NCBI GenBank assembly: GCA_934476075.1 | Contig: CAKSNH010000013.1 | Location: 1-64,000 of the forward strand | Source of the DNA: an uncultured Clostridia bacterium | GTDB taxonomy: Bacteria; Bacillota; Clostridia; UBA1381 | DNA: 64,000 nucleotides | Direction: 5' to 3' | Shown: positions 1 to 64,000 of the stretch, piece after piece | Position numbering within the stretch: position 1 is the stretch's first letter | How the letters are laid out: the number at the start of each line of letters is the position of its first letter | Notes under the pieces: model-generated | Seen by the model: the letters and a program-made list of their open reading frames with translations, nothing else | Told to the model about the DNA's origin: nothing | Databases searched by the model: none | Translations under genes and position numbers: made by a program

Positions 1-179
1 TTTGCCGTAATATTTTGTTATGAGTTTATCTCGTAACAAAATATTGCGGAATGTAACACATCTATTGTAAACCTACATTTTTTTGTTTAATCAAAGTATA
101 TTATCGGTTGACTTATTGCATTATATAATATAAAATAGTTTTATGGTGCTTTTTGCAGAACAAGGGACGGAGGTATACT

Positions 180-1184
180 GTGAAAAAAATAAAATATATA
201 GTATTAATTTTAACAGCGATAATAATATTTTCCGGAATATATGCTGCGGTGGATATTAATAAAGATATGAAGAAAAACCATCTCAAAGAAACGGTTACGA
301 TTAATATTGCCGACGGAGCAACGGGAAATTCGGTTATAAAGTCGCTTAAAGAAAACGGTGTAATCAAATATCCGACATTTTTCAAAATGAAAGCAAAGTC
401 GGACGGGAGCATAACAAAGTTTCAGCCGGGCGATTTAACGGTCGAGCCGAACACAAGCTATGAGGAGATAATAAACAGCCTTAAAACAACCAACAGGAAT
501 ATGTTTAAGGTTACTATCCCCGAGGGGTACGAAATGCGTCAGATTGCCGAAAAATTCGCCGAAACGGGTGTAATATCAACAGACGATTTTTATGCTGCCG
601 CAAAGGCAAGCGATTATGACTACAAATTTTTAAAGGATATACCAAAGCGTGAAAATGAATTGGAGGGTTATCTTTATCCCGACACATATGTATTTGGGCA
701 TAATGCGTCGGCACATGATATAATCAAAATGATGCTTGACGAATTTGATAATTGTTTTAAGGAAGAATATTATCAGCAGGCGGAAAATATGAACATGACC
801 GTTGACCAAATTGTTACGCTTGCGTCTATTATAGAGCGTGAAACCAATGTGCCCGAAGAACGTGCAAAGGTTGCCGGAGTGTTCTACAACAGAATAAATT
901 CAAACATGAAATTGCAGTCGTGTGCAACAGTACAGTATATCTTAAAGGACAGAAAAGCAAAATTGTCAAATGCAGATGTGCAGATTGATTCAAAATACAA
1001 CACATACAAATACAGCGGTCTGCCGATTGGTCCGATAGCGTCGGCAGGGGAGGAGTGCATAAAAGCGGCACTGTATCCCGAAAAAACCACCGCAAAATAT
1101 TTTGTGCTCGGCAAGGACGGAAAACACGTTTTCTCCGACACTTATCAGCAGCATTTGGCGGCAAAACAAAAAGCAGAGTCATAG
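180..1184 (+). CDS. mltG: Endolytic murein transglycosylase MltG (YceG family). The start is probably the GTG at 180 after AGGGACGGAGG; the ORF track extends to a TTG at 153.
   Basis: N-terminal TM helix followed by a YceG-like domain, with a C-terminal LPIGPIASAGEE-type motif typical of MltG. It sits next to a yrrM-like methyltransferase, as in Bacillus yrrL-yrrM. Confidence 0.75.
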   Translation: MKKIKYIVLILTAIIIFSGIYAAVDINKDMKKNHLKETVTINIADGATGNSVIKSLKENGVIKYPTFFKMKAKSDGSITKFQPGDLTVEPNTSYEEIINSLKTTNRNMFKVTIPEGYEMRQIAEKFAETGVISTDDFYAAAKASDYDYKFLKDIPKRENELEGYLYPDTYVFGHNASAHDIIKMMLDEFDNCFKEEYYQQAENMNMTVDQIVTLASIIERETNVPEERAKVAGVFYNRINSNMKLQSCATVQYILKDRKAKLSNADVQIDSKYNTYKYSGLPIGPIASAGEECIKAALYPEKTTAKYFVLGKDGKHVFSDTYQQHLAAKQKAES

Positions 1185-1204
1185 AAAGGACAGCATATTA
1201 CAAA

Positions 1205-1864
1205 ATGATAGAATACGACAGAAATGCTATAACATATGAATATGTTACAAATTATATACGCAGCGAATTGCCGAAAAAACAAGGCTTGCTCGGCGAGATG
1301 GAAAAGTATGCCGAGGAGAACAGTGTTCCGATTGTTCCGCCCGAAACGGCGGCACTTTTATCGGTATTGTCAAATTCCGTAAAGCCTATGAACATATTGG
1401 AGATTGGCTGTGCTATCGGATATTCGGCGATAACTTTGTCGGAGGGGCTGGGTATCGGCGGTCAGATTACCACGCTTGAATACAACAGCGACATGGTTAA
1501 AATTGCAAGAGCAAATATAGAAAAAGCCGGACTGTCGGATACGATAACGGTCATTGAAACCGATGCAAAGGATTATATAAAAGACTTAAACGGCGTATAC
1601 GATATGATTTTTCTGGACGGACCGAAAGCACATTACATATATATGCTTGATGATTGCGTGCGTCTGCTCAGAAAAGGCGGTCTGCTCGTTGCGGATAACG
1701 TTCTTTATAAAGGAATGACCACAACCGATGATTTGGTTATACGGCGAAAAATAACGATTGTACGCCGTCTGCGTCAATTTATAACGGAATTGAACAGCAG
1801 GGCGGATTTAAAAACATCAATACTGCCTTTGGGTGACGGAATGACAATATCGGTAAAGCTATAA
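1205..1864 (+). CDS. Class I SAM-dependent O-methyltransferase, TrmR/YrrM-like (caffeoyl-CoA OMT fold).
   Basis: SAM-binding motif LEIGCAIGYSAITL. The size (~220 aa) and the position directly downstream of mltG match Bacillus yrrL-yrrM. The upstream extension to 1055 overlaps mltG and is rejected. Confidence 0.6.
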   Translation: MIEYDRNAITYEYVTNYIRSELPKKQGLLGEMEKYAEENSVPIVPPETAALLSVLSNSVKPMNILEIGCAIGYSAITLSEGLGIGGQITTLEYNSDMVKIARANIEKAGLSDTITVIETDAKDYIKDLNGVYDMIFLDGPKAHYIYMLDDCVRLLRKGGLLVADNVLYKGMTTTDDLVIRRKITIVRRLRQFITELNSRADLKTSILPLGDGMTISVKL

Positions 1865-1886
1865 CACACTGCGGAAAGGATAAAAT

Positions 1887-2594
1887 ATGAAAGACCTACT
1901 ATTAAAGGGTGCGAAAGAACTCGGTGTACCCCTTGACGAACAACAGGCGGAACAGTTTTGCCGATATGCAAAGCTTTTGGTCGAGTGGAACGAAAAGATT
2001 AATCTTACGGCAATAACGGACGATAACGGAATAGTTACAAAACATTTTTTGGACAGTCTTACTCCGATTTTGACGGATAAGGTGAACGGTGCGGTGATTG
2101 ATGTGGGCACGGGAGCGGGATTTCCGGGGCTGCCGCTTAAAATCGCCAAACCCGAAATAAAGCTTACATTGCTTGACTCGTTAAACAAACGTGTGAAATT
2201 TCTTCAAACAGTGACCGATGAATTGGGACTTGACAATGTGGAGTGTATACATTCCCGTGCCGAGGACGGCGGAAGAAACAAGGATTTGCGTGAAAAATTT
2301 GATTTGTGCGTATCCCGTGCGGTAGCCAATTTGGCGGTGCTTTGTGAATTTTGTCTGCCGTTTGTAAAGGTGGGCGGAATGTTTATGGCTTTAAAAGGAC
2401 CTTTGGCAGATGAGGAGATTGAAAATGCAAAGCGTTCGATAAGGGAATTGGGCGGTGAAGTGTGCGATACGGCGGAGTTTGATATACCTTTTACCGACTT
2501 AAATCATAAAATAGTTATGATTAAAAAAGTGCGACATACTCCGAAACAATATCCCAGAAAAGCCGGAGTTCCGACAAAAAATCCGCTTGTTTAA
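1887..2594 (+). CDS. rsmG: 16S rRNA (guanine527-N7)-methyltransferase RsmG (GidB).
   Basis: LLVEWNEKINLTAITD...HFLDSL N-terminus and a GxGxGFPGLPLKI SAM motif. A GGA-rich RBS precedes the ATG. Confidence 0.85.
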   Translation: MKDLLLKGAKELGVPLDEQQAEQFCRYAKLLVEWNEKINLTAITDDNGIVTKHFLDSLTPILTDKVNGAVIDVGTGAGFPGLPLKIAKPEIKLTLLDSLNKRVKFLQTVTDELGLDNVECIHSRAEDGGRNKDLREKFDLCVSRAVANLAVLCEFCLPFVKVGGMFMALKGPLADEEIENAKRSIRELGGEVCDTAEFDIPFTDLNHKIVMIKKVRHTPKQYPRKAGVPTKNPLV

Positions 2595-2977
2595 ATGAGT
2601 TTATTTGTAATTAATGAATTTTATTATAATTTAATATGAAATTTAGTCGAACTGTTTTTCTTCACATTTGGGAATTTTATGATATAATTGTGAATGTAAG
2701 GCAGTTCGATTTTGTATGTAATGAAATATTCATACAATAAAAACAAGCAGATTGTGTGTCCGAAAAACACACCCCCAACAACTGCATTTTTTATAGTACC
2801 CCCAAGCACTATAAAGACAGCCTTACACCTTCCACCACCAAAAGTTGCTTTGGCAGAGTAGTTAAAATGTATAATCGGGTATGACAGTTGCTCCGACATC
2901 AGTATTATACAAATTCATCACAGACTATTGCATCAATCTCTGCCAAAAGCAGCCCATAAACAAGGAGGAATAACATT

Positions 2978-3784
2978 ATGATGCAGGCATTTAGAAATAA
3001 GTTCAGCAACGAGGAACGCATGAAAATAGTAAATATTCCTTTGGAAATAATATATCCAAATCCAAATCAGCCACGAAAGAATTTCGAGGACGGTACGCTT
3101 AATGAATTGGCGGAGTCAATCGACCAATACGGGGTTATACAGCCGATAACCGCCCGAAAGATAGACCGAGGGTATGAGATTATAGCAGGCGAACGCAGAT
3201 ACAGAGCGTGCAAGCTGTTAGGGCTTGCGACAATACCGGCTATAATCATAAATGCAGACGATAATAAGTCGGCAATTCTTGCACTTTTGGAGAATTTGCA
3301 GCGTGAGGATTTATGCTTTTTTGAGATTGCCGAGGCATATCAGAACTTAATCCGTGAACAGGGCATGACGCAGGACGAGTTGGCGAGGAAAGTGGGGAAA
3401 AGCCAATCCACGATAGCCAATAAGCTGCGTTTGCTCAGGCTCAGTCCGAAGGTAAAAAAGCTTGTGAGGGAGTTTGCTCTGACGGAGCGTCATGCAAGGG
3501 CGATACTCTCTGTCACGAATGAGGACGAGCAGCTGAGTGTACTCAGAACGGTGTATGACAAGCAGTTAAACGTTCAGCAGACCGAGGAGCTTGTGCTCAA
3601 ATTGTTAAAGGACAAGCCCGAAAAGAAAAAGAAAGAACCGTTTCCGGCATTCAAGGATTTGCGTATTTTTACAAACACAATCAAAAAGGCTTTGTCCGTT
3701 ATGGAGCAAAACGGAGTGAAAGCGAATATGAAAAAGAATGATTTTGATTGGGGGATAGAATATATTATAAAGGTTGAGAAGTAA
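2978..3784 (+). CDS. ParB/Spo0J-family protein (Noc-like nucleoid occlusion or ParB paralog). No adjacent parA.
   Basis: ParB N-terminal box (QPRKNF...IQPITARK...YEIIAGERRYRA) plus an HTH. It follows rsmG, as in the Firmicute gidB-noc arrangement. A strong RBS AAGGAGG is present. Confidence 0.7.
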   Translation: MMQAFRNKFSNEERMKIVNIPLEIIYPNPNQPRKNFEDGTLNELAESIDQYGVIQPITARKIDRGYEIIAGERRYRACKLLGLATIPAIIINADDNKSAILALLENLQREDLCFFEIAEAYQNLIREQGMTQDELARKVGKSQSTIANKLRLLRLSPKVKKLVREFALTERHARAILSVTNEDEQLSVLRTVYDKQLNVQQTEELVLKLLKDKPEKKKKEPFPAFKDLRIFTNTIKKALSVMEQNGVKANMKKNDFDWGIEYIIKVEK

Positions 3785-3812
3785 TAAAGGTGCTGCAAAA
3801 ACAGCACCTTTA

Positions 3813-4055
3813 TTAAATTTCAAGACCGTCAAAAAAGTCATCAAACGAACAGTTATATATTTCTTTCAGAGCAAGAATTACACTGATTTTGATGTTTAGT
3901 TCTCCGGCTTCGTATTTTGCATATGTGCTTCTGCCGATGTCGCAGCCGTAGAGCTGTAATTCGGCACACAGCTTTTCCTGTGAAAAATTATTGTCAAATC
4001 TTAATTTTCTTAAATTGTCACCGATATTTCGGTCACGTCTTAGTTTTTGTTCCAT
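3813..4055 (-). CDS. XRE-family helix-turn-helix transcriptional regulator.
   Basis: HTH_XRE signature (IGDNLRKLRFDNNFSQEKLCAELQ...STYAKYEAG). Confidence 0.6.
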   Translation of the reverse strand: MEQKLRRDRNIGDNLRKLRFDNNFSQEKLCAELQLYGCDIGRSTYAKYEAGELNIKISVILALKEIYNCSFDDFFDGLEI

Positions 4056-4294
4056 TAATCTTCTTCAATATCAACCAATTTATACATAGGTATGTTTAAA
4101 ACCTCTGCTATGACAAAAAGAGTTTTAAGCGAAGGGCAAAAATAACTGTTAGGACCTTCAAGCTGTGAAATATATCCTGCCGATAAATTGCAGCTTTCGG
4201 CAAGTTCCTCCTGCGTCATACCGCTTAGCTTGCGGTAGTATGCAATTTTAAGACCTATTTTGATTAAATTCATTTTGTATTGGCTTTCTAACAT
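4055..4294 (-). CDS. XRE-family helix-turn-helix transcriptional regulator, tandem with the previous one.
   Basis: HTH_XRE signature (IGLKIAYYRKLSGMTQEELAE...SQLE). Confidence 0.6.
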   Translation of the reverse strand: MLESQYKMNLIKIGLKIAYYRKLSGMTQEELAESCNLSAGYISQLEGPNSYFCPSLKTLFVIAEVLNIPMYKLVDIEED

Positions 4295-4312
4295 ACTATT
4301 CCTCCGTGCTGA

Positions 4313-5920
4313 TTATTGCATATTCTTTTTCATTTCCAAATATTCATCATAACTGCACATTCTGTCGATTATACCGTCGGGAGTTATCTCGATAATACGG
4401 TTTGCGATAGTCTGTATAAATTCATGGTCGTGCGAGGCGAATATAATATTGCCGGCAAAGCTTTCCAAGCCTTTGTTTACGGCTGTGATAGATTCAAGGT
4501 CAAGATGGTTTGTAGGCTGGTCGAGCAGCAGCACGTTTGAACCGTATACCATCATTCTCGAAAGCATACATCTTACCTTTTCACCGCCCGAAAGCACGTT
4601 TACTTCCTTAAACACATCATCGCCCGAGAACAACATTCTGCCCAGAAAACCACGAATATAAGACTCGTTTTGGGTGTCGAAACCGTCGGGAGTGTATTGC
4701 CTTAGCCAATCAATCAGATTTAGCTTGCACCCGTCAAAATATTTCGTATTGTCCTTAGGGAAGTAGCTTTGACTTGTGCTCACACCCCATTTGTAGCTGC
4801 CTGAATCGGGTTCGGCATTGCCCGAAAGAATTTCAAAAAGCATGGTAACCGCAAGTTCATTTTCGCCGATAATTGCGATTTTGTCATTTTTGTTGACGGT
4901 AAAGGTTATGTCGTTAAGCAAAAGCTGTCCGTCCTGTGATTTGGTAAGCGAGTTTACAAACAAAATGTCTTTGCCCGCCTCTCTGTCCATGGTAAATCCG
5001 ACAAACGGATATTTTCTGCTTGACGCCGGCATTTCCTCAACCGTGATTTTTTCAAGCATTTTCTTTCTTGAAGTAGCCTGTTTTGACTTTGATTTATTTG
5101 CCGAGAAACGCTGAATAAAGTTTTGCAGTTCGCTGATACGTTCTTCCGCTTTCTTGTTTTGCTGTTTCATCATTCTTTCGATAAGCTGACTCGATTCATA
5201 CCAGAACTCGTAGTTGCCGACATACATTTTAATTTTTGTATAGTCAATATCGACTATATGCGTACATACCGTGTTAAGGAAATGACGGTCATGCGATACA
5301 ACTATTATCGTACCTTCGTAGTCAAGAATAAAGTCTTCAAGCCATTCGATAGCCTGTATGTCAAGGTGGTTTGTAGGCTCGTCAAGAAGGATAATGTCGG
5401 GATTTCCGAAAAGAGCCTGTGCAAGCAGTATTTTCACCTTTTCATTGCCTGTAAGCGATGACATTTCTTGATATAAAATTGATTCGTCCAAACCAAGTCC
5501 CTGTACAAGTCTTGATGCGTTCGATTCGGCCTCCCAGCCATCAAGCTCGGCAAACTCAGCCTCTAAGTCGGCGGCACGAATACCGTCCTCATCGGAAAAA
5601 TCCTCTTTTGCATACAATGCGTCTTTTTCCTTCATAATATCATACAGGTGCTTGTTGCCGATTATTATTGTGTCAAGCACGGTGTAGCTGTCGTATGCGA
5701 AATGGTCCTGTTTTAGGACGGACATTCTTGTGTTTTCGCTGATTGATACTTCACCGGTCGTGGAGTCAAGCTCGCCCGAAAGTATTTTTAAAAATGTGGA
5801 TTTGCCCGCACCGTTCGCACCGATAACCCCGTAGCAATTACCCGGTGTAAATTTAAGGTTTACGTTTGAGAACAGATTTGTTCCGCTGAAATTTAAACTT
5901 AGATTTGTAACTGTTATCAC
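4313..5920 (-). CDS. ABC-F family ATPase (two fused ABC domains, no TMD). Subtype undetermined: translation factor-like or ARE-type. Start is the GTG at 5920 (MITVTNLSLNF) after AGGAGA.
   Basis: Two Walker A motifs (GANGAGKST and a second NBD), two ABC signature and Walker B regions, and a charged interdomain linker. Confidence 0.8.
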   Translation of the reverse strand: MITVTNLSLNFSGTNLFSNVNLKFTPGNCYGVIGANGAGKSTFLKILSGELDSTTGEVSISENTRMSVLKQDHFAYDSYTVLDTIIIGNKHLYDIMKEKDALYAKEDFSDEDGIRAADLEAEFAELDGWEAESNASRLVQGLGLDESILYQEMSSLTGNEKVKILLAQALFGNPDIILLDEPTNHLDIQAIEWLEDFILDYEGTIIVVSHDRHFLNTVCTHIVDIDYTKIKMYVGNYEFWYESSQLIERMMKQQNKKAEERISELQNFIQRFSANKSKSKQATSRKKMLEKITVEEMPASSRKYPFVGFTMDREAGKDILFVNSLTKSQDGQLLLNDITFTVNKNDKIAIIGENELAVTMLFEILSGNAEPDSGSYKWGVSTSQSYFPKDNTKYFDGCKLNLIDWLRQYTPDGFDTQNESYIRGFLGRMLFSGDDVFKEVNVLSGGEKVRCMLSRMMVYGSNVLLLDQPTNHLDLESITAVNKGLESFAGNIIFASHDHEFIQTIANRIIEITPDGIIDRMCSYDEYLEMKKNMQ

Positions 5921-8348: not shown

Positions 8349-9671
8349 CTATTTTTCGCAGAGCTTTTGCCACAGTCCCTCAGCAAGTGCTTCGGGAGGC
8401 GTGTTGCTTAATATAAATTGTTTCTGTTCGTTTCTTAAATAATCGTAAAATGCGTAAACTCTGCTGTAATATTCGGGATTTTGCTGTTCTGACAAAACCT
8501 CCGAGCTTTCCTTAACTTTTTTTAGAGTTGCATAGAGTTTTTCATAATCGGTTGTCTTGAAACGGTAGTCGCCTATTTTGTCAAACGCACCGTTTGTAAC
8601 CGGCATATAACCTGTTTGGCATACGAACTCAAGATTTCTTTTCGGTTCGGTAAGCCATTTGGCAAAAATCGCTGACGCTTCTGCTTTTTGAGTTGTTGTT
8701 TTATATGAACAAAGTCCAACTCCGGCTTGCGTAATATACGGTTTTTTGCCATTTTCCGATGGAACAGGCAGTATCTCCAAATTCATCGGCTCACTTGTCC
8801 CGTCCTCATATGTCACGGTATTGTTATAGTAAAGAATTGCGGCGGACGAGCCTATCCCTGCCACAACCTCACCTGTCATAACCTGCGTGTTAGAATAGAG
8901 GTTTGAAAGCATAATATGTCCTTTTGCAAACGAATCCGCAAATTTCATAAATGTCTGCTTAAATATCACGTTAGAAGTGTCATAAAATCCGTTGTCGGCA
9001 AAAATGTTCTCTACGCCATTTTCCGCAGCTGCAAGCTCAACGGCACGGAGCGGATAATCAAGAGCACAGAACGGTTTTCCGCCCGACCAGTCATAATATT
9101 TCGCAGCAGCGTCAAAAAAACCGTTCCAGTCGGAAAGGGATTCATATGTAACGCCCGTATCGGCTGAAAAACGTTCAAATTGACCCCCGGCGATAAATAA
9201 AAGATGCGTGGATTTGGACACAGGAAACACAGCTAACCTTCCGTCTGCCGTGCCGTCCTCCAAAAACTCGGGAACATATGAAGAAAGCTCTTTTTCGGAA
9301 AAATATTCGTTCCAGTCAATTAAATTATCCGTTCCAAGTTCCAGTGCGTTGCTTTTGTGTGCAAAGAAAAGGTCGGGCATTTCGGCGGAGCCGGGAATTT
9401 TTTTTTGTGCGTCAAGCAGCTTTTCGCCTATTTTGGAGGCGTTGGACATTGCCGTGACGTTGATGATAATGCCTTTTTCCATGCCAACTGTCTCGTTGAA
9501 TTCGTCAATAAGCCGATTCATAGGCGAATCCGCCTGTTCTCCGTAAACGTGCCACATTGTAAGCGTAACGGGTTTGTTTTTATCAAGTTCCGATTTTTTG
9601 CAGCCCGAAAAGCAACAAAGCGAAACAGCTAATATGAGTAAAAGCGAAAAAATTTTTCTTATTTGCCACAT
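8349..9671 (-). CDS. Extracellular solute-binding lipoprotein (ABC-type SBP family 1-like, sugar-type). No permease or ATPase genes adjacent.
   Basis: Lipoprotein signal peptide LLLILAVSLCCFSGC and an SBP-like fold pattern. It sits immediately upstream of, and in the same orientation as, the membrane LuxR regulator, with a 13-bp gap. Confidence 0.65.
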   Translation of the reverse strand: MWQIRKIFSLLLILAVSLCCFSGCKKSELDKNKPVTLTMWHVYGEQADSPMNRLIDEFNETVGMEKGIIINVTAMSNASKIGEKLLDAQKKIPGSAEMPDLFFAHKSNALELGTDNLIDWNEYFSEKELSSYVPEFLEDGTADGRLAVFPVSKSTHLLFIAGGQFERFSADTGVTYESLSDWNGFFDAAAKYYDWSGGKPFCALDYPLRAVELAAAENGVENIFADNGFYDTSNVIFKQTFMKFADSFAKGHIMLSNLYSNTQVMTGEVVAGIGSSAAILYYNNTVTYEDGTSEPMNLEILPVPSENGKKPYITQAGVGLCSYKTTTQKAEASAIFAKWLTEPKRNLEFVCQTGYMPVTNGAFDKIGDYRFKTTDYEKLYATLKKVKESSEVLSEQQNPEYYSRVYAFYDYLRNEQKQFILSNTPPEALAEGLWQKLCEK

Positions 9672-9755
9672 ACAAAAATCCCTCCGTGATAAGTTTTTAT
9701 GATTTTTTATCCGTTTTCGTATTTTTTACAACGAACGTTTGCCGCTACCTGCATT

Positions 9756-9858
9756 TTTTAATTTGTAGGAAATTGCGTAAAACGCAATGACGAAAAATCA
9801 AAAATGCTACCTTAGTCCTCCGCCCGCAGGCGGTGCTTCTATCAGAAGCTTTTTTATA
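9756..9858 (+). repeat. Intergenic repeat family 1, copy 1 (~100 bp, ends in a terminator-like double hairpin).
   Basis: TTAATTTGTAGGAAATTGCGTAAAACGCAATGACGAAAAATCAAAAATGCTACCTTAGTCCTCCGCCCGCAGGCGGTGCTTCTATCAGAAGCTTTTTTAT. Confidence 0.8.
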
Positions 9859-23842: not shown

Positions 23843-24112
23843 ATGCAAAAATCAAAAAGAGAGGAGATGCAAAGCTATATCGAAAGGTATTAACGCAGAT
23901 AAAGAACTCAACAATTCGGATTATATTGTTATTTAATCCGGCACATTCCGACACAGTTTGCAGAGAAATGTAAAATATCGCATTATGATATTCTGTAACT
24001 GTATCACCGTCATAGCATACGCTGAGGAGCAAAAAAGCACAGAAGAAAACAAAAAGCCTCCAAACAATCGGACGACTATCATGACGGACAAAATAAACAC
24101 GCTGACCGTACA

Positions 24113-24160
24113 GCCAAATTTACCCGTGTTTTTCAAGCGGGTAGGTTTGGCTGTTTTTAA
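24113..24160 (+). terminator. Rho-independent terminator-like hairpin.
   Basis: CCAAATTTACCCG-loop-CGGGTAGGTTTGG followed by CTGTTTTTA. It lies immediately upstream of the partial repeat-family-1 copy. Confidence 0.4.
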
Positions 24161-24182
24161 TTTGTAGGAAATTGCGTAAACA
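24155..24182 (+). repeat. Intergenic repeat family 1, truncated copy (5' ~28 nt only).
   Basis: TTTTTAATTTGTAGGAAATTGCGTAAACA, then diverges. Confidence 0.6.
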
Positions 24183-26348: not shown

Positions 26349-26391
26349 TGCAAATTTGATTTATCCGAAGATTAGTGGTATAATAACCTCA

Positions 26392-26460
26392 CGAAATAAA
26401 ACGAAATCAGAGATTTCTGTATCTCGGAGAACATTTTATCATAATACTGCGGCGACATAC
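26392..26460 (+). repeat. Intergenic repeat family 2, copy A (promoter -10 plus conserved leader-like element).
   Basis: TGGTATAATAACCTCACGAAATAAAACGAAATCAGAGATTTCTGTATCTCGGAGAACATTTTATCATAATACTGCG, upstream of the MATE gene. Confidence 0.7.
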
Positions 26461-37616: not shown

Positions 37617-38300
37617 ATGAATATAAACGAGTATGTGTCAGAGATAAAGGACGACAATACAAAAATAGATGTATTCATTGAAGAATACAAACCGTTCATT
37701 ATGGGTGTGGTTTCAAGAAAACTGGGCGGTTTTTTTGAATATGGCGTGGACGAGGAACTGAGTGTGGCACTCGGTGCGTTTTTGGAGGCGATAAACGGCT
37801 TCGACCAAAACAAAGGAAATTTCCTATCCTTTGCGTCTACCGTCATTCACAGACGCTTGATTGATTTTCTGCGGCGGAAAAAACATAATGAACTGTCCAT
37901 AGAGGACTGCGAGGAGAATAACCCCGCTTTGCTTGGTAAAAGCTCCGTTGAGTCGTACAATCAGAGTGAGTATGAAGAAAATCTGCGTATTGAACTTGAA
38001 ATGTTCCGCCGTGAATTGTCCGTGTTCGGAATAAGCATGGAAAAGCTGGTTAAAGCGTCACCAAAGCAGAAAGGAACACGAAAACTGTATAATACAGTTG
38101 TTTCGTACATAACCCAAAATGAAGAAATTTTAACCCAGATTTTGCAAAAAGGCTATATGCCCGTTACGGCAGTGAGCGAGAATTTGGGTATTAACCGCAA
38201 GAAAATAGAACGTGGACGTGATTATATTATTGCGTGCGTGATTATTCAGCATGGAGATTATGTGTATATGAAAGAATATATTAAGTGGGAGGTGATATAA
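37617..38300 (+). CDS. sigI: SigI-family RNA polymerase sigma factor.
   Basis: Sigma-70 region 2 plus the SigI-type C-terminal domain. It is followed, with a 1-nt overlap, by an RsgI_N-containing anti-sigma factor. Confidence 0.7.
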   Translation: MNINEYVSEIKDDNTKIDVFIEEYKPFIMGVVSRKLGGFFEYGVDEELSVALGAFLEAINGFDQNKGNFLSFASTVIHRRLIDFLRRKKHNELSIEDCEENNPALLGKSSVESYNQSEYEENLRIELEMFRRELSVFGISMEKLVKASPKQKGTRKLYNTVVSYITQNEEILTQILQKGYMPVTAVSENLGINRKKIERGRDYIIACVIIQHGDYVYMKEYIKWEVI

Positions 38301-40459
38301 TGAAGGGCAGAATAATAGAAATCAATAACGGATATGCAATAGTAATCACCAAAAACGGTGAGTTTGTGAAAACAAGAAATTACAAAAAAGCGTCTGTGGG
38401 CGATGAAATAACCGTATGCACAGGATTTGCGGGATATACAAAAGCAATAGCGGCGGCTGCGGCTATGGTGGCGGTATTTTGCGGTACGGCGGTGTCATAT
38501 TGTATGCCCACGAGTTATGTCGATATATGTATAAACCCCGAAATTGAACTCAAACTTAATATGTATGACATTGTTATCGGTGCGGAAGGGAAAAATGATG
38601 ACGGTGCTGCGGTGCTCGGCAGGGAAAATGTGAAAAATGTAAAGCTGAAAAACGCACTTGACGATATAATCGAGAATGCACAGAGTTTAGGATTTATTCC
38701 CGAAAATGAGGAAAAGACGGTTGTATTGTCGGTGTTTGCGAAAAATGAGGGTACGGCAAAAAGCCTGTATGAAAGCGTTAAGGCTTATGAAGTGCCGGAG
38801 AGAATTAACAAGGTAGTGAAAATTGCAAGCAGTGACGATGTTACAAATGCAAATGCGGAGAATTTGTCCGTGGGCAAATATTTGCTTGTGAACGAGGTTG
38901 CGGACGCTGTGCCCGAAATGTCAAAAGAGGAATGGAAAAATCATTCGGTTAAAGAGATTATAACAACGCTTGACAAGGTAAAGGACAACAGCGTAACAAC
39001 AACATCTGCACAGGCGGAAAATCCGCAGAATACAGTCGGCGGAACGGAAAACGTTATCGAAAATAAGCCGAAAATCAGTCCGAAACCCGAAACGGGTACG
39101 GCGGAACGTCCGACAACCTTTACAGAGCGTAAAACTGAGGATATTCCAAAACCGCAGACTATAAAAGCTGACGAGAGAAATACGCAAAAGCCGACTGAAA
39201 CAAGGTTTGGTGTGCCTGTCGGGGATATTGCTCCGAAAGAGGAAAAGAAACCTGTGATATTTGCCGACAGCGAGCCTATGCCAAACCACGATGGCGGCAA
39301 TGCAGAGCCGAATGACGAGCCTAAACCGCCGGAGATTGAAAGCCGAGATAATGAACCGCCGTCAAACAACAGTGAGTTTGAGAAACCGCCGATAACAAGC
39401 GGTGACGATTTTGGCGAAAACAATATTTTTGATGACGGCAGAAAAGACGATAACAATAATGTGCTTGATAATGAGCCTGTAAATGGCGATGGGGATATGA
39501 CACTTCAAAACGGCGATAAGACTCATTCGGGCGGCGGTGCAAAAGCAGATAGTAACAAGTCAAATATTGACAATCGACCGAATGAGAACCCGAACGGCGG
39601 ATTTGGTGACAGACAAGACGAGCCGAGCAACAAAGATTTTGACAGTCGACCGAATGAGAACCCGAACGGCGGATTTGGTGACAGACAAGACGAGCCGAGC
39701 AACAAAGATTTTGACAGTCGACCGAATGAGAACCCAAACGGTGGGTTTGGTGACAGGAAAGACGAGCCGAGCGACAAGGATTTTGGCAATCGACCGAATG
39801 AGAACCCAAACGGTGGGTTTGGTGACAGGCAAGACGAGCCGAGCGACAAAGATTTTGGCAATCGACCGAATGACAATCCAAACGGTGGGTTTGGTGACAG
39901 GCAAGACACACCGCCGGACAGGGATTTTGGCAATCGACCGAATGAGAACCCAAACGGTGGGTTTGATAACAGGCAAGACGAGCCGAGCGATAAGGATTTT
40001 GGCAATCGACCGAATGAGAACCCAAACGGTGGGTTTGATAACAGGCAAGACGAGCCGAGCGATAAGGATTTTAACAGTCAACTGAATGAGAACCCAAACG
40101 GCGGATTTGGTGACAGACAAGACGAGCCGAGCGACAAGGATTTTGACAACCGACCGAATGAGAATCCAAACGGTGGGTTTGGTGACAGGCAAGACGAGCC
40201 GAGCGACAAGGATTTTGACAATCGACCGAATGAGAATCCAAACGGTGGGTTTGATGACAGGCAAGACACACCGCCGGACAGGGATTTTGATGACAGAACG
40301 TATTTTGATATGCCAAGCTTTGACGGCGGACATGATGAGATGCCGTCAGAATGGGATTTTGGCGACAGCGGATTTGACGGAGAATGGAATGATGCTCCCG
40401 ACGACAATCCTCCGCCGGAGCATGAAAACGGTTTTAATGACGGGCCGTTTGGCGAATAA
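38300..40459 (+). CDS. rsgI: RsgI-family anti-sigma-I factor with a single TM helix and a long extracytoplasmic repeat domain of low complexity.
   Basis: RsgI N-terminal domain (MKGRIIEINNGYAIVITKNGEFVKT...GDEITV). TM helix AIAAAAAMVAVFCGTAV. Then ~10 tandem 24-aa units RPNENPNGGFGDRQDEPSDKDFDN. Confidence 0.7.
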   Translation: MKGRIIEINNGYAIVITKNGEFVKTRNYKKASVGDEITVCTGFAGYTKAIAAAAAMVAVFCGTAVSYCMPTSYVDICINPEIELKLNMYDIVIGAEGKNDDGAAVLGRENVKNVKLKNALDDIIENAQSLGFIPENEEKTVVLSVFAKNEGTAKSLYESVKAYEVPERINKVVKIASSDDVTNANAENLSVGKYLLVNEVADAVPEMSKEEWKNHSVKEIITTLDKVKDNSVTTTSAQAENPQNTVGGTENVIENKPKISPKPETGTAERPTTFTERKTEDIPKPQTIKADERNTQKPTETRFGVPVGDIAPKEEKKPVIFADSEPMPNHDGGNAEPNDEPKPPEIESRDNEPPSNNSEFEKPPITSGDDFGENNIFDDGRKDDNNNVLDNEPVNGDGDMTLQNGDKTHSGGGAKADSNKSNIDNRPNENPNGGFGDRQDEPSNKDFDSRPNENPNGGFGDRQDEPSNKDFDSRPNENPNGGFGDRKDEPSDKDFGNRPNENPNGGFGDRQDEPSDKDFGNRPNDNPNGGFGDRQDTPPDRDFGNRPNENPNGGFDNRQDEPSDKDFGNRPNENPNGGFDNRQDEPSDKDFNSQLNENPNGGFGDRQDEPSDKDFDNRPNENPNGGFGDRQDEPSDKDFDNRPNENPNGGFDDRQDTPPDRDFDDRTYFDMPSFDGGHDEMPSEWDFGDSGFDGEWNDAPDDNPPPEHENGFNDGPFGE
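39575..40295 (+). repeat. Tandem array of about 10 copies of a 72-bp unit inside rsgI.
   Basis: The unit cgaccgaatgagaacccaaacggtgggtttggtgacaggcaagacgagccgagcgacaaggattttgacaat recurs with a few substitutions per copy. It is in frame and encodes the 24-aa repeats. Confidence 0.85.
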
Positions 40460-41487: not shown

Positions 41488-41520
41488 ATAAATTTTCTCC
41501 TTTTGTATTTGGGGGCAGTC

Positions 41521-41625
41521 ATAAAAAAGCTTCTGATAGAAGCACCGCCTGCGGGCGGAGGAATAATGTAGCATTTTTGATTTTTCGTCATTGCGTTTTA
41601 CGCAATTTCCTACAAATTAAAAAAA
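41521..41625 (-). repeat. Intergenic repeat family 1, copy 2 (inverted orientation).
   Basis: The reverse complement matches copy 1 over ~100 nt with a few substitutions. It lies between the Ca/Na exchanger gene and yebC. Confidence 0.8.
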
Positions 41626-41627
41626 GA

Positions 41628-41668
41628 CTTTTATTGCCGCACAAAAGTAACAATAAAAGTCTTGCTAA
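41628..41668 (-). terminator. Intrinsic terminator downstream of yebC.
   Basis: 13-bp stem AAGACTTTTATTG / CAATAAAAGTCTT with a T run on the minus strand. Confidence 0.6.
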
Positions 41669-41762
41669 TTATAAATGGTACGGATTGAATAAAATCAATC
41701 GGGACTGTCGACACCATTAACGTTAAAACGTAAGCTACTCCCTTTTATTTTAAACAAATTAA

Positions 41763-43761: not shown

Positions 43762-43895
43762 TATTAAAAGGCAAATTTGGCAAATAAAATCAAAGTAACG
43801 GTATGTGCCGATAAAAAATACAATATAAGGAGGGGATTCATTTACAAAAATGAGTGCATACCTGTGAAATGACAAAAAGAAAGAGGGGAATAAAA

Positions 43896-45092
43896 ATGAT
43901 AAAGAAAATATTAAGTTTTTTTGTGACAGTATGTATATTGTGCACGGTTTTCCCGTGTGCGGTTTTTGCGATTGACGAAAGCGGTGAGATTGACGCCGCA
44001 AGAAAGGCTATCAGAAAGAGTGAAAGTACGCTTACAGCGTATAATGATATGCCAATGGAAGCATTTATAAGCCTTGTAAAGACAGTTATTCCGGCAGACA
44101 GCAGTGTGGAGCTCTCTTTTGAGAAAGAATCTGATTACCGTATATACAACGCAACGAGCGAAAAAGACGGTTCGATTTTTGCAAATATCCGGTTCACCTG
44201 CGGGCCTTACACAAGACACGATATGTATACCATTAAAATACCGGCACTTACCGGTGCGGCGGCTGAAAACAATCAGGACGCTGAAAATGTGGCAAAGGAT
44301 ATTGCAGAGGCAAGGGAAATTTTCAAGAGCGTTTCACTTGACCCGAACGTTACGCCGGACGATATTTTAAACTCGATAAGAGCGGTTATCACACACGGCA
44401 GTACGGTAACGCTTGACGGCGAATTTACAAAGGTAGATTCTACCGCAAAGAAAAAAGGCTCGGTAAAATGTTTTGTTAAATTTACAATCAACAGTGCGTC
44501 TGATACATTGAAGGTGTACAATACACTTAAATTGCTTGGCGACAATTCAGCCAACATACCTACAACTCCGGCAGCACCGGCAGGATTTACAGACGTGGCA
44601 GACGATGCATACTATGCAGATGCGGTTAAATGGGCGGTTGAAAAGAATATCACTCAGGGTACAAGCGATACAACTTTCTCTCCTGACGAAACCTGTACAA
44701 GAGCACAAATTCTGACATTCCTATGGCGTGCGGTAGGCTCGCCGAAAACAGGTGACGCAAATCCTTTTGCAGACGTAACGGCAAACGATTATTACTATGA
44801 CGCAGCTATTTGGGCGGCTAAGATGGGTATGGTTTCTGGCGACAGATTTAACGGCGATACCCCTTGCACAAGAGCACTTACCGTTACATATCTATGGCAG
44901 AATGACGGTGCGGAAGAATACGAGGATTTGGGCGTATTTGATGATGTTGACGCTAATGCGAGTTATTGTGCGGCGGTATCATGGGCAGTTGAAAACGGCG
45001 TTACAAGCGGTGTGTCCGATACGGAATTTGCACCTAATGAAATTTGTTCGAGAGGTCAGATTGTGACTTTCCTGAAAAGAGCATTGGGCTGA
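43896..45092 (+). CDS. S-layer-homology (SLH) domain cell-wall-anchored protein.
   Basis: Signal peptide FFVTVCILCTVFPCAVFA. Three C-terminal SLH repeats (FTDVADDAYYADAVKWAVEKNITQG; FADVTANDYYYDAAIWAAKMGMVSG; FDDVDANASYCAAVSWAVENGVTSG). Confidence 0.7.
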   Translation: MIKKILSFFVTVCILCTVFPCAVFAIDESGEIDAARKAIRKSESTLTAYNDMPMEAFISLVKTVIPADSSVELSFEKESDYRIYNATSEKDGSIFANIRFTCGPYTRHDMYTIKIPALTGAAAENNQDAENVAKDIAEAREIFKSVSLDPNVTPDDILNSIRAVITHGSTVTLDGEFTKVDSTAKKKGSVKCFVKFTINSASDTLKVYNTLKLLGDNSANIPTTPAAPAGFTDVADDAYYADAVKWAVEKNITQGTSDTTFSPDETCTRAQILTFLWRAVGSPKTGDANPFADVTANDYYYDAAIWAAKMGMVSGDRFNGDTPCTRALTVTYLWQNDGAEEYEDLGVFDDVDANASYCAAVSWAVENGVTSGVSDTEFAPNEICSRGQIVTFLKRALG

Positions 45093-45174
45093 TTTGGTTT
45101 AAATAGTTAAATTGATGTGACTCCAAAAAGTTAGACTTTTTATAGCGTGGTAGTTTTAATGACTGCTACGCTAT

Positions 45175-45276
45175 TTTTAATTTGTAGGAAATTGCGTAAC
45201 ACGCAATGACGAAAAATCAAAAATGCTACCATAGTCCTCCGCCCGCAGGCGGTGCTTCTATCAGAAGCTTTTTTAT
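45175..45276 (+). repeat. Intergenic repeat family 1, copy 3.
   Basis: Near-identical to copy 1 (TTTAATTTGTAGGAAATTGCGTAACACGCAATGACGAAAAATCAAAAATGCTACCATAGTCCTCCGCCCGCAGGCGGTGCTTCTATCAGAAGCTTTTTTATG). Confidence 0.8.
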
Positions 45277-45336
45277 GCGTAAATTTTTAAAACATGATAG
45301 TAAATGATAGTTTTTTATGCGTTAAAATTAAGGTAC

Positions 45337-45410
45337 AATAACTTAACGAAACAGAACGAAATCAGAGAATTTCTATGTTTTGGAAAACATTGCATCATAA
45401 TACCGTGTTG
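45337..45410 (+). repeat. Intergenic repeat family 2, copy B.
   Basis: CAATAACTTAACGAAACAGAACGAAATCAGAGAATTTCTATGTTTTGGAAAACATTGCATCATAATACCGTG, upstream of the DnaD-like gene. Confidence 0.7.
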
Positions 45411-57512: not shown

Positions 57513-57816
57513 TATTCTTCACCGTACCAATCCGCCGCTGATAACGCAGCATATATGTCATTTGTCATAGAGTAGTTTTCCGCAAAATGCAAAAACTCAT
57601 TCCGACAGTCGGCATATTCTGTATTTTCGGCTGTCAATACAGGCATAATATCCCTCCCGTACAATGGCATTATTATACATGACATTGCATTTTTTTCACA
57701 CTCATATATTATATTTTACTACATATGCGATGATTTTGCAAGCAGTAAATTATATAATGTTGAACAGGGTGTACACAGGCATGTAAATATTGATTTTGGG
57801 GAGAATAAGTGTTAGA

Positions 57817-57868
57817 ATAACCTCACGAAACAGGACGAAAGCAGAGATTTCTATGTTTCCTAACTTAA
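57817..57868 (+). repeat. Intergenic repeat family 2, copy C (5' part only; points into the 3' end of the histidine kinase gene on the opposite strand).
   Basis: GAATAACCTCACGAAACAGGACGAAAGCAGAGATTTCTATGTTTCC. Confidence 0.65.
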
Positions 57869-62580: not shown

Positions 62581-64000
62581 ATGACAAAAACGGGAATTAA
62601 ATTGATAACTTTTGTATTTGTAATATTTATGATGTCTGTTATGTCGGTTATGGCTGCCGAAAGCGGAACTTGCGGAGATAATCTGACTTGGAAATTGGAA
62701 AGCGGTACATTAACCGTAAGCGGAAATGGAAGTATGAAAAATTATTTATATGGTTCAGTACCATGGGAAGACAGTAAAACAGGTATAAGAAAAGTTGTAA
62801 TAGAAGATGGGGTAACCAATATAGGCACAGGTGCATTCAGAAAATGTACGGGAATTACACAGGCAGTAATAGGTGATGATGTACAAAGTATAGGAGATAG
62901 TGCATTTTACGGCTGTACAGGTTTGCGAAATGTGGAAATGGGAAACGGTGTGACGGATATAGGGCAGAATGTATTTAACGGCTGTACAGGTTTGCAGAGT
63001 ATTACATTGGGAAATAATGTTGAGAATATAGGAAACTCAGCTTTTTGTGATTGCATCGGATTGAAAGAAATTGAAATGGGGAAGAAATTAAAAACAATAA
63101 AAAACAGTGTATTTAGTAATTGTAAGGTGTTAAATAATGTAACTATTCCTGCCGGTGTAACGAGTATAGGAAACAATGCGTTTGAAAAATGTGTTGGGCT
63201 AGAAGAAATATCCATTCCAATCAATGTTAAGAGTATAGGAACGTCTGCTTTTTATAATTGCAGCGGTTTAACGAGTGTCGAAATAGGAAGGGGAATGGAG
63301 GTTATAGCCGAAAAGACATTTCAGGGGTGCACAAGTTTAATAAATGTGACAATACCGGAAAATATAACTGATATAGGCGCAGGTGCGTTTAGCGGTTGTA
63401 CCAAATTGCAGAATGCAGTAATAGGCAGTGGGGTGACCAATATAGGCACAAGCGCATTTAGCCAATGCGGGGGAATGAAGAAAGTATCGATTGGAAAGAA
63501 TGTAGAAAAAATAGGAGGTTCGGCATTTAGTAAATGCAGTAGTTTGGAAGGAGTAACAATTCCGGATAGTGTCAGAGAATTGGGGAATAACGCATTTTTG
63601 CAGTGCACAAGCTTAAAAGGCGTAAAATTAGGTGAAGGGTTAAGTATTATAGACGAGTATACTTTTAAAGGATGCAGCAGCTTAACCGATATAATAATAC
63701 CTGACAATATAACAAGTATTGGAAGTAGTGCGTTTAGCGGTTGTACAGGACTAAAAAATGCAGTAATAGGAAATAATGTAACAATAATAGGAAGCGGTGC
63801 GTTTAGCGGCTGTACAGGTTTAATAAATGTGACAATACCGTCAAGTGTAACGAGTATAAATAACAATGCATTTAATAAGTGTACAAGTTTAAAAAAAGTG
63901 AATATCGGAAATAACGTTACTTTGCTAGGGGCTAATGCTTTTGCAAATTGCAGCAGTCTGACGGATTTGAGAATTCCTGTTAGTGTAACAAGCATAGGAA
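62581..64000 (+). CDS. BspA-type leucine-rich-repeat surface protein. It is partial and continues beyond the window end.
   Basis: Signal peptide MTKTGIKLITFVFVIFMMSVMSVMAA. At least 14 tandem ~23-aa LRR_5 units (NV/IT.IG..AF..C..L..V.I). It is not in the ORF track because no stop codon falls inside the window. Confidence 0.65.
   Translation, partial: MTKTGIKLITFVFVIFMMSVMSVMAAESGTCGDNLTWKLESGTLTVSGNGSMKNYLYGSVPWEDSKTGIRKVVIEDGVTNIGTGAFRKCTGITQAVIGDDVQSIGDSAFYGCTGLRNVEMGNGVTDIGQNVFNGCTGLQSITLGNNVENIGNSAFCDCIGLKEIEMGKKLKTIKNSVFSNCKVLNNVTIPAGVTSIGNNAFEKCVGLEEISIPINVKSIGTSAFYNCSGLTSVEIGRGMEVIAEKTFQGCTSLINVTIPENITDIGAGAFSGCTKLQNAVIGSGVTNIGTSAFSQCGGMKKVSIGKNVEKIGGSAFSKCSSLEGVTIPDSVRELGNNAFLQCTSLKGVKLGEGLSIIDEYTFKGCSSLTDIIIPDNITSIGSSAFSGCTGLKNAVIGNNVTIIGSGAFSGCTGLINVTIPSSVTSINNNAFNKCTSLKKVNIGNNVTLLGANAFANCSSLTDLRIPVSVTSIG

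Follow-up and report, generated by a model that had tools for sequence, protein, structure and literature searches.

What is the short sequence that recurs between the genes of this locus, and how did it come to lie there? The locus is a stretch of 64,000 nt, here called the window, of ordinary chromosomal DNA from a Clostridia-type organism with 41% G+C. Its genes include those for a solute-binding protein, YebC, a Na+/Ca2+ exchanger, an SLH protein and a DnaD-like protein, as well as the Rnf complex, GatCAB, ParB and RsmG. The initial annotation had described an intergenic repeat of about 100 bp, for which it offered two readings: a REP/MITE-like dispersed element or a multi-copy small RNA gene.

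Copies of the element in the window

A repeat finder and BLAST both recovered the three full copies and the one truncated copy that had been annotated, the latter being a 22-nt stub of the 5' end. The full copies are 95-98% identical, in line with the more than 90% identity claimed for them, and they occur in both orientations (Table 1). With the repeat finder, 9754-9857 matched 41521-41624 at 98% and 41520-41626 matched 45171-45277 at 95% within the window. A BLAST search of the element against the window gave 98% identity over 103-104 nt for both other full copies. The stub appeared as a perfect 27-nt 5' match at 24154-24180 in BLAST and as a 30-nt match at 24150-24179 in the repeat finder. 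No further copies were found in the window by BLAST at E<0.01.

The copies were aligned together with 60-100 nt of flank on each side. Similarity begins and ends abruptly in these alignments and the flanks are unrelated on both sides, which shows that the copies in the window are independent units and not fragments of a larger duplication. The element is not restricted to this locus either, as copies are present in other genomes.

The length of the repeat had to be revised. In one related locus (L018) two copies form a head-to-tail tandem that repeats every 96 nt exactly. The unit is therefore AATTTGTAGG...GCTTTTTT, although its ends may equally be placed elsewhere within the T-run and A that both sides share. 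The annotated repeat of about 100 bp is thus real, but its repeating unit is 96 nt in all three full copies. Similarly, the truncated piece annotated at 24155-24182 is present with shifted bounds, and its 22 nt of element follow the T-run of the target. The stub sequence is identical in three other assemblies. The element starts with AATTTGTAGGAAATTGCG... at its 5' end and finishes with ...GCTTTTATCAAAAGCTTTTTT at its 3' end.

Copy 1 is located in a divergent region upstream of an SBP_bac_8 gene (8349-9671, minus strand). Copy 2 is followed by the exchanger gene, whose ATG at 41487 lies 35 nt past the unit.

Table 1. Positions in the window of the element copies, their targets and the parts of the element (parts are given for copy 1).
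Feature	Position	Strand	Remarks
Copy 1, full 96-nt unit AATTTGTAGG...GAAGCTTTTTT	9760-9855	+	T6 before it (9754-9759), without a strong hairpin
5' subterminal hairpin TTGCGT-AAA-ACGCAA	9773-9787	+	13 nt from the 5' end; six of six pairs kept in 19 variants
A-rich core GACGAAAAATCAAAA	9789-9803	+	Best-conserved block between families F1 and F2
GC-rich hairpin CCGCC-CGCA-GGCGG	9820-9833	+	
3' hairpin GCTTCT-ATC-AGAAGC and T6	9835-9855	+	Terminator-like end of the element
5' stub, first 22 nt of the element, remainder deleted	24159-24180	+	Behind a strong hairpin and T5 (about 24110-24158)
Copy 2, full unit	41523-41618	-	Between the hairpin and T-run downstream of YebC and the ribosome-binding site of the Na+/Ca2+ exchanger gene
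Copy 2 target, hairpin AAGACTTTTATTG...CAATAAAAGTCTT and T7	41619-41663	-	Unchanged, with T6, at the L051 empty site
Copy 3 target, 14-bp terminator hairpin and T5	45142-45178	+	
Copy 3, full unit	45179-45274	+	Directly 3' of the terminator of the SLH-domain gene (43854-45092)

Structure of the element

The element codes for nothing. The ORFs predicted over the copies had been called spurious, and this is borne out: their ATG frame enters a different flank in each copy, and the ATG is an ATA in one relative (L025). The internal inverted repeat and the two 3' hairpins with their T6 were all found as annotated (Table 1).

The predicted fold of the element is more stable than that of shuffled controls, with z = -3.7 for RNA and -4.9 for DNA. 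All three hairpins are kept among 19 variants, where 94% of the pair cells are standard pairs. One pair in the last stem covaries, being C-G in five variants and U-A in 11, with three mismatched intermediates. The three remaining stem changes all lead to G-U. In the predicted folds, the A-rich core pairs with the T-run of the target and the following AATTT.

A diverged relative, family F2, is about 65% identical to the main family F1 and lies in tandem behind an F1 copy in two loci (L029 and L060). An HMM search of about 400 kb of related loci found no other partial or longer relatives. F2 retains the 5' ATTGGCAGGA, the central GACGAAAAATCAAAA, a CCTTATT motif and a GC-rich hairpin, and the 5' hairpin is absent from it. 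Its last hairpin, GGCTTT/AGAGCC as against GCTTTT/AAAAGC in F1, covaries and is followed by T5A. The comparison of the two families indicates that the conserved features are the terminator-like 3' end and the A-rich core. F2 may be a decayed copy. F1 itself is highly uniform, and the alignment of F2 to F1 is ambiguous.

Distribution and copy number

We scanned a collection of species-representative genomes (one genome per species) with the 5' 20-mer ATTTGTAGGAAATTGCGTAA. Copies were carried by 42 DNA stretches from eight genome assemblies. About 29 of these stretches belong to the human-gut MAG CAKSJU01, five to the MAG RQCD01 and three to CAKSGP01. Single stretches came from CAKSGG01, CAKSJF01, CAKSTI01, CASFSH01 and the cultured Ructibacterium gallinarum DSM 107454 (Oscillospiraceae). 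Alignment of the 42 stretches revealed one and the same element, with flanks that show virtually no resemblance to the window or among themselves. The 39 full-length copies comprise 18 distinct variants with 93-100% identity, and 19 of these copies are identical to one another. Only seven true copies, in addition to four chance matches, were found when the JGI metagenome collection was scanned with the conserved core. Two scans of viral contigs and BLAST searches of plasmids and phages returned zero copies.

Many of the element matches lie at contig ends, and contigs from other strains of the window's species start or stop inside the element. Contigs that break in this way are the usual signature of a dispersed repeat. 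Chimeric joins at repeats are possible in metagenome assemblies, and one locus (L060) may be such a case. There, the left flank of L023 is joined to the right flank of L029 via the element, which reflects a chimeric assembly or else genuine recombination between two copies. As an explanation of the element as a whole, however, a segmental duplication or assembly error is ruled out by the independent assemblies, which come from different studies and include an isolate genome, and by the unrelated flanks; we regard its probability as negligible.

The Ructibacterium copy is located just upstream of genes for a type IV secretion coupling protein, a pilin-like protein and a VirB4-like protein. These neighbors suggest that this copy resides inside a conjugative element, which would offer a route by which near-identical copies reach different species. 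Spread between species would proceed by horizontal transfer.

Presence and absence of the element at orthologous sites

One locus, L051, from a near-identical strain, shows the site of copy 2 without the element. The exchanger encoded there is the closest relative of that of the window (98% identical), and the intergenic region between YebC and the exchanger is ~97% identical to that of the window and 97 nt shorter. The empty site reads ...CAGTAAAAGTC-TTTTTT-ATGTCTGC (...AAAAGTC-T6-ATG). The filled site in the window reads ...CAATAAAAGTC-TTTTTTT-AATTTG...GAAGC-TTTTTT-ATGACTGC, with T7 before the element and T6-ATG after it. This was the only clean empty site found, and its T-run is one T off the prediction. 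A second polymorphism consists of a single copy in L059 versus the tandem of two in L018.

No orthologous empty sites were found when the window was compared with the 42 loci by blastn and tblastx, as these loci are too diverged and share a conserved gene with the window only in the case of L020. Contigs carrying exact-protein neighbors of copies 1, 3 and the stub likewise contained no empty sites, and in every other assembly the copy is present or the contig ends within it. In sister-species loci, with proteins 69% and 63% identical, the gene order differs and the element is absent.

The 19 identical copies at unrelated loci, together with the precise presence/absence polymorphism, indicate recent active spread. 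We conclude with high confidence that the element is mobile and non-autonomous. The annotated reading as a REP/MITE-like dispersed element thus stands, with a precise empty site, copies in eight assemblies, 19 identical copies, a tandem and assembly breaks in its favor.

Probable insertion at T-runs behind terminator hairpins

The junctions of the element are sharply defined. At the left junction of 48 copies, positions -6 to -2 are T in 46-48 of the 48, and A occupies position -1 in 46. Variant left junctions were seen four times: TTTTTG, TTTTTC and, twice, TTCTTA. Farther upstream of the T-run, the sequences of the copies are unrelated. The upstream T-run varies in length from about 5 to 9, and at the 3' end of the element itself the run is T6 in 36 of 40 copies. 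At the right junction, this T6 is followed by A (40/40), then by T or C (40/40), and then by A or T (38/40). The polarity relative to the T-run is the same in all 48 copies, the run being on the top strand of the element. The target T5A equals the 3' end of the element, so a duplication of up to 6 bp is compatible with the junctions, despite the scarless-looking empty site in L051.

A hairpin and T-run had been annotated before every copy. In the window, hairpins of -16 to -29 kcal/mol with a T-run do precede copies 2 and 3 and the stub; the T-run before copy 1 is accompanied by no more than a weak one (-4.8 kcal/mol). To put numbers on this feature, a strong hairpin was defined as one at or below -8 kcal/mol and no more than 2 nt from the T-run. 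Such hairpins precede 28 of 47 occupied sites versus 12 of 82 unoccupied sites in the same loci, the latter being T-runs of at least six outside ORFs followed by A and T or C (odds ratio 8.6, p = 3e-7). An earlier, looser test gave 30 of 46 occupied sites with a hairpin and 30 of 254 unoccupied T5A sites outside ORFs. By eye, a good stem abuts the T-run in about 36 of 46 copies. The hairpin and T-run were noted in the initial annotation, which did not take them as the insertion target; they are the most informative feature of the locus.

Gene orientation points the same way. The upstream gene is co-oriented with the element in 30 cases versus 9 otherwise, and the downstream gene is convergent in 17 versus 11. 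In six cases, the TAA stop codon of the downstream gene is the complement of the terminal TTA. The junctions and the orientation of the genes place the element exactly where the transcript of the upstream gene would end. Since hairpins are enriched at occupied sites, we suggest that the element homes to intrinsic terminators, and we consider it likely that terminators, or T-runs followed by A and T or C (A-Y), are what it targets.

Some copies have the T-run and A without the hairpin. These include copy 1 of the window, the copies in L010, L015, L020 and L033, and a few others, mostly in divergent promoter regions. Judging from these exceptions, the T-run with A-Y looks like the minimal target. 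The target hairpin would then be either a strong enhancer of insertion or a correlate of where insertions survive. The preference for hairpins could partly stem from selection, with terminators as safe landing sites, instead of from recognition.

What moves the element

The proteins encoded near the copies do not point to a mover. The 148 genes within 2.5 kb of the copies are functionally unrelated, and no Pfam family recurs among them beyond chance. The 25 most recurrent of the 211 Pfam families found in these 148 flanking proteins include no transposase family. There is no transposase among the called genes that cover most of the window, no longer element sharing the ends in the 42 aligned stretches or in about 400 kb of related loci, and no related IS in plasmid, phage or viral collections. 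One locus, L067, was considered as an autonomous parent and rejected, because a convergent gene's 3' end follows the break, which is therefore a deletion or rearrangement.

The best-known strand-specific mechanism is that of the IS200/IS605 family. Its members insert beside a short motif, bear a related one at their right end, are excised scarlessly without target duplication, have hairpins at their ends and include gene-less derivatives called PATEs (PMC10055086). They transpose as a single strand by "peel and paste" (PMC10055086). In a survey of ISs, terminator-like sequences were enriched just upstream of the elements, most strongly for IS200/IS605 (PMC13548323).

The lack of terminal inverted repeats, the fixed orientation, the hairpins near both ends and the scarless-looking empty site all argue for a strand-specific mechanism. 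The best overall explanation, in which we have moderate confidence, is a gene-less mobile element that targets T5-A-Y sites and terminators and moves as single-stranded DNA by HUH chemistry. Insertion occurs in a single fixed orientation, where a stretch of five or more Ts ends and an A followed by T or C comes next. T-runs right after hairpins, i.e. the intrinsic terminators of other genes, would be preferred. Because the element ends in its own 3' hairpin and T6, each insertion would recreate a terminator-like site at which the next copy can insert, giving rise to tandems. The element would travel as one DNA strand, cut and joined by a HUH/Y1-type transposase encoded elsewhere in the genome. 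The subterminal hairpins and the T5A motif would serve as recognition signals for this enzyme, and terminator hairpins extruded on the lagging-strand template may be favored as targets.

Our assignment of the mover to a trans-acting, IS200/IS605-like HUH enzyme with strand-specific single-strand transposition is tentative. It is held back by the unlike end hairpins, the misfit to the guide rule, the constrained base that follows the insertion and the fact that no partner was found. Movement by undescribed machinery, which would recognize the hairpin, T-run and A-Y as both element end and target, seems improbable. Such machinery could be a novel kind of nuclease or recombinase, or a process begun by RNA released at the element's own terminator. 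If it exists, terminators throughout the genome would be dispersed homing sites for a 96-nt parasite, with the shape of the terminator as its only "address label".

Alternative explanations

Two alternatives concern the way in which the element moves. It might be a classical cut-and-paste MITE mobilized by a DDE transposase, with a strict TTTTTA duplicated and an element proper of about 90 nt (ATTTG...GCT). TTTTTA is indeed found at both junctions, the tandem period of 96 equals 90 + 6, and subsequent point mutation could account for the four variants among the left junctions. The 5' TTTGTAGGAA also weakly resembles the complement of TTCTATCAGA near the 3' end. However, inspection and alignments did not reveal genuine terminal inverted repeats: the two ends agree in no more than 6-7 of 12 bases, and this match is gapped and not terminal. 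In addition, double-strand insertion does not explain the uniform orientation of 48 copies relative to an asymmetric target, nor is the enrichment of hairpins at the target explained. We therefore find a DDE MITE rather unlikely; a mariner-type TA duplication was rejected for the same absence of inverted repeats. Alternatively, an RNA released at the element's own terminator could be copied into DNA at other terminators, or the element could be a parasite of group IIC intron machinery. The 3' boundary (GC and T6) coincides with the point of RNA release at an intrinsic terminator, the insertion point with the end of other transcripts, and the three one-sided stem changes all lead to G-U pairs, which RNA tolerates. 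Group IIC introns are also the one known class that inserts right after terminator motifs in the same orientation (PMC1702495). Conversely, 96 nt is too short for the ribozyme domains of a group II intron, no Rfam intron, ribozyme or other family matches even at E<=10, no promoter was found that would produce the RNA, and no reverse transcriptase is among the neighbor families listed. Under a target-primed scheme, the element would further be expected between the hairpin and its T-run, or else with a 3' T-run of varying length, at odds with the exact T6 in 36 of 40 copies; target-primed reverse transcription was rejected for its wrong junction geometry. An RNA route is thus very unlikely.

The other two alternatives assign the element a function in the host. 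It could be a module that serves as an extra terminator, a stabilizer of mRNA 3' ends or an insulator, kept by selection and spread by recombination or gene conversion in the manner of REP sequences instead of as an active parasite, and an equivalent idea has been proposed for SPRITE (PMC3049150). Its positions at gene 3' ends and between convergent genes and its terminator-like 3' end would suit this role, and at one Ructibacterium locus the element is ~98% conserved versus flanks that are 90-93% identical overall. Yet the 19 identical copies at unrelated loci and the precise presence/absence indicate recent active spread, and a good terminator already precedes the copies, so that little would be gained from another. 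In the commonest subfamily, the 3' hairpin is weak (GCUUUU/AAAAGC, with two G-C pairs), and several copies lie 20-35 nt upstream of a start codon, where efficient termination is impossible. A host-serving module is hence an unlikely origin; domestication of the element after insertion is possible. Finally, the element could represent a multi-copy family of small RNA genes or cis-regulatory leaders, as the initial annotation had also proposed. It has a stable fold of three hairpins with a terminator end, copy 2 and several relatives lie just upstream of genes, and the CCUCC of the window subfamily could pair with ribosome-binding sites. This anti-Shine-Dalgarno-like CCTCC is confined to the window subfamily, however, and is CCTAC or CCCAT in other subfamilies, so an anti-Shine-Dalgarno small RNA was rejected. 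A promoter scan found no sigma-70-like promoter inside the copies and none conserved in front of them, and copies sit directly behind the terminators of other genes. The neighbors have no common function (148 neighbors, 211 Pfam families), and a near-identical strain has an empty site. In Rfam, only two tRNAs of the window reach the gathering threshold, and the best matches of the element at E<=10 are noise. A small RNA or leader is, in our view, highly improbable, and this part of the initial annotation is not upheld. The preferred reading remains that of a gene-less mobile element, perhaps moved in trans as a single strand.

Comparison with known repeats and mobile elements

We compared the element with described systems and conclude that it represents a new family of small non-autonomous interspersed elements, distinguished by its sharp terminator target and by a 3' end that mimics this target. 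The nearest systems are SPRITE in appearance and niche, the IS200/IS605 PATEs in likely mechanism and group IIC introns in target choice only.

SPRITE is a terminator-like repeat of Streptococcus pneumoniae with about 30 copies that are enriched between convergent genes, and no empty site, target or transposase is known for it (PMC3049150). Both SPRITE and the element are small, AT-rich, non-coding interspersed repeats with tens of copies per genome. Both have a terminator-like stem with a T-rich tract, are enriched near gene 3' ends or between convergent genes, and lack convincing terminal inverted repeats and a known transposase. SPRITE differs in its Bacilli host, as opposed to Clostridia, and no sequence relationship is apparent, the comparison being one of described architecture. 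Its structure is one 18-bp duplex with a long U-rich tract (PMC3049150), whereas the element has three short hairpins. For the element, in contrast, an unoccupied site and a tandem are on record, and its target can be stated precisely (hairpin, T>=5, A, T/C).

Like PATEs (PMC10055086), the element lacks terminal inverted repeats, carries a hairpin near either end, inserts with a fixed orientation by a short T-rich motif (TTTAT for ISGst2, TTTTTA for the element) and has a similar motif at its right end. Its empty site looks scarless, as those of PATEs do, although a duplication of up to 6 bp would also fit. PATEs are mobilized in trans, as we propose for the element. In contrast to PATEs, the left and right hairpins of the element are unrelated (TTGCGT/ACGCAA versus GCTTTT/AAAAGC); in IS608-type elements, the two hairpins are alike. 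The bases 5' of the element's right-end hairpins also do not fit the guide rule, and no tnpA-bearing relative of the element was found. The base after the insertion is T or C in 40 of 40 copies, and to our knowledge such a constraint is not a property of IS200/IS605 elements. We likewise know of no description of a target-hairpin preference as a property of this family.

Group IIC introns insert directly 3' of terminator motifs, which consist of an inverted repeat with trailing Ts; they take on the orientation of the terminator and cause no target duplication (PMC1702495). They have in common with the element the site just after a terminator hairpin and the shared orientation. Unlike the element, which has 96 nt and no match to an intron model, they span 600 nt or more, contain conserved ribozyme domains and in most cases encode a reverse transcriptase.

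Classical MITEs (RUP, Correia, ERIC) and REP/REPIN sequences resemble the element in being short, non-coding, intergenic, structured, multi-copy, assembly-breaking and possibly rearranging. Classical MITEs also show presence/absence polymorphism, as the element does, but they have terminal inverted repeats and a clear duplication (e.g. TA), a pattern not seen in the element. REP/REPIN sequences are palindromes of 20-40 nt, often in inverted pairs and linked to RAYTs, as opposed to 96 nt and three different hairpins. Copies of the element are single or in direct tandem, never in inverted pairs.

Consequences for hosts and assemblies

For most short gene-less repeats of bacteria, neither the target nor the mover is known; the target of this element is sharp and is used in one orientation. 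Terminators may be safe landing sites for a very small parasite, a habit documented mainly for group IIC introns and, statistically, for IS200/IS605. The culturable host Ructibacterium gallinarum DSM 107454 provides a test case defined by sequence. For metagenomics, the element matters because it breaks assemblies of gut Clostridia and may create chimeric joins or real rearrangements.

Copy 2 of the window and the copies in L029 and L016 are those found 20-35 nt upstream of a start codon. Given the weak last hairpin of the main subfamily and this short distance, termination at the element would be leaky or the genes would need read-through. Copies that lie between a terminator and the next start codon may thus alter read-through and gene expression.

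Joins and breakpoints within the element

Metagenome contig L060 joins two sequences through the mobile repeat F1: on its left is the left flank of stretch L023 (98.2% over 3.8 kb), and on its right is the right-hand flank of L029 (98.8% over 1.8 kb). Either two copies of the element have recombined, or the assembly is chimeric at this repeat. Stretch L067, whose locus is orthologous to that of L038, has the element in the last ~120 nt of a 1302-nt contig, counted on the element's strand. There, the element ends after ...CCTTATTCCTA, and what follows is a convergent ORF, joined by its 3' end (...GNASSTLS*). L067 is a deletion or rearrangement with its breakpoint within the element. The element in L038 has a 12-nt internal deletion in nearly the same place as the L067 break.

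L029 and L060 also contain F2, a diverged relative with about 65% identity to the element, which was seen only in tandem, immediately behind an F1 copy. F2 lacks the 5' hairpin of the element but retains the A-rich core, CCTTATT and an end made of a hairpin + T5A.

Genomic context of the copies

About 60 nt downstream of the only element copy in Ructibacterium lies a gene for a type IV secretion coupling protein, followed by TrbC/VirB2-like and VirB4-like genes. Considering these downstream genes, this copy lies within a conjugative element.

The target of copy 2 in the window, a hairpin and T-run, has a promoter-like TTGATT-N17-TTTATA upstream (region 41619-41760, minus strand). At the empty site, it is only about 35 nt ahead of the start of the exchanger gene. 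The target may be a 5' attenuator, instead of or besides the YebC terminator. Several copies in human-gut MAG CAKSJU01 (L017, L022, L031 and L037) have terminator-like flanks in which the motif GCGTTCCGGAC / GTGTTCCGAAC and then T7 are found again and again. This motif may represent a further short repeat, or else a terminator family shared within this MAG.

For positions 1-5000 and the window as a whole, the presence of ParB, RsmG (GidB) and YceG genes, together with a positive GC skew over nearly the whole window, suggests that the window is located on one replication arm, fairly near the origin. The G-rich strand is the top strand of the element in three of the four window copies.

Other repeats in the window

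Copies of a second repeat family in the window consist of a promoter-like TTGATT...TGGTATAAT and then a conserved leader, AACCTCACGAAACAGAACGAAATCAGAGATTTCTATGTTTC, and possess a small hairpin (GAAATC-AGA-GATTTC). The family had no Rfam match at the gathering threshold and may represent a common 5' leader or regulatory motif.

Repeats were also found within genes. The RsgI-like anti-sigma factor gene is adjoined by a sigma-70 family gene. Proteins of the LRR_5 + SLH type are encoded at other places in the window too.

Locations of the repeats and their context
Feature	Location	Strand	Context
Region with the sole Ructibacterium element copy	L064:538-9927		same locus in L016, L061, L063
F2	L029:7321-7413	-	
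F2	L060:3827-3919	+	
Second family	window 26356-26425		MatE transporter gene downstream
Second family	window 45311-45380		DnaD-like gene downstream
Second family	window 57790-57859		no assigned gene downstream
Tandem 72-nt (24-codon) repeats, at least 10	window 39492-40439		within RsgI-like anti-sigma factor gene (38285-40459)
69-nt (23-codon) leucine-rich-repeat-type units	window 62813-63927		in gene at window's end
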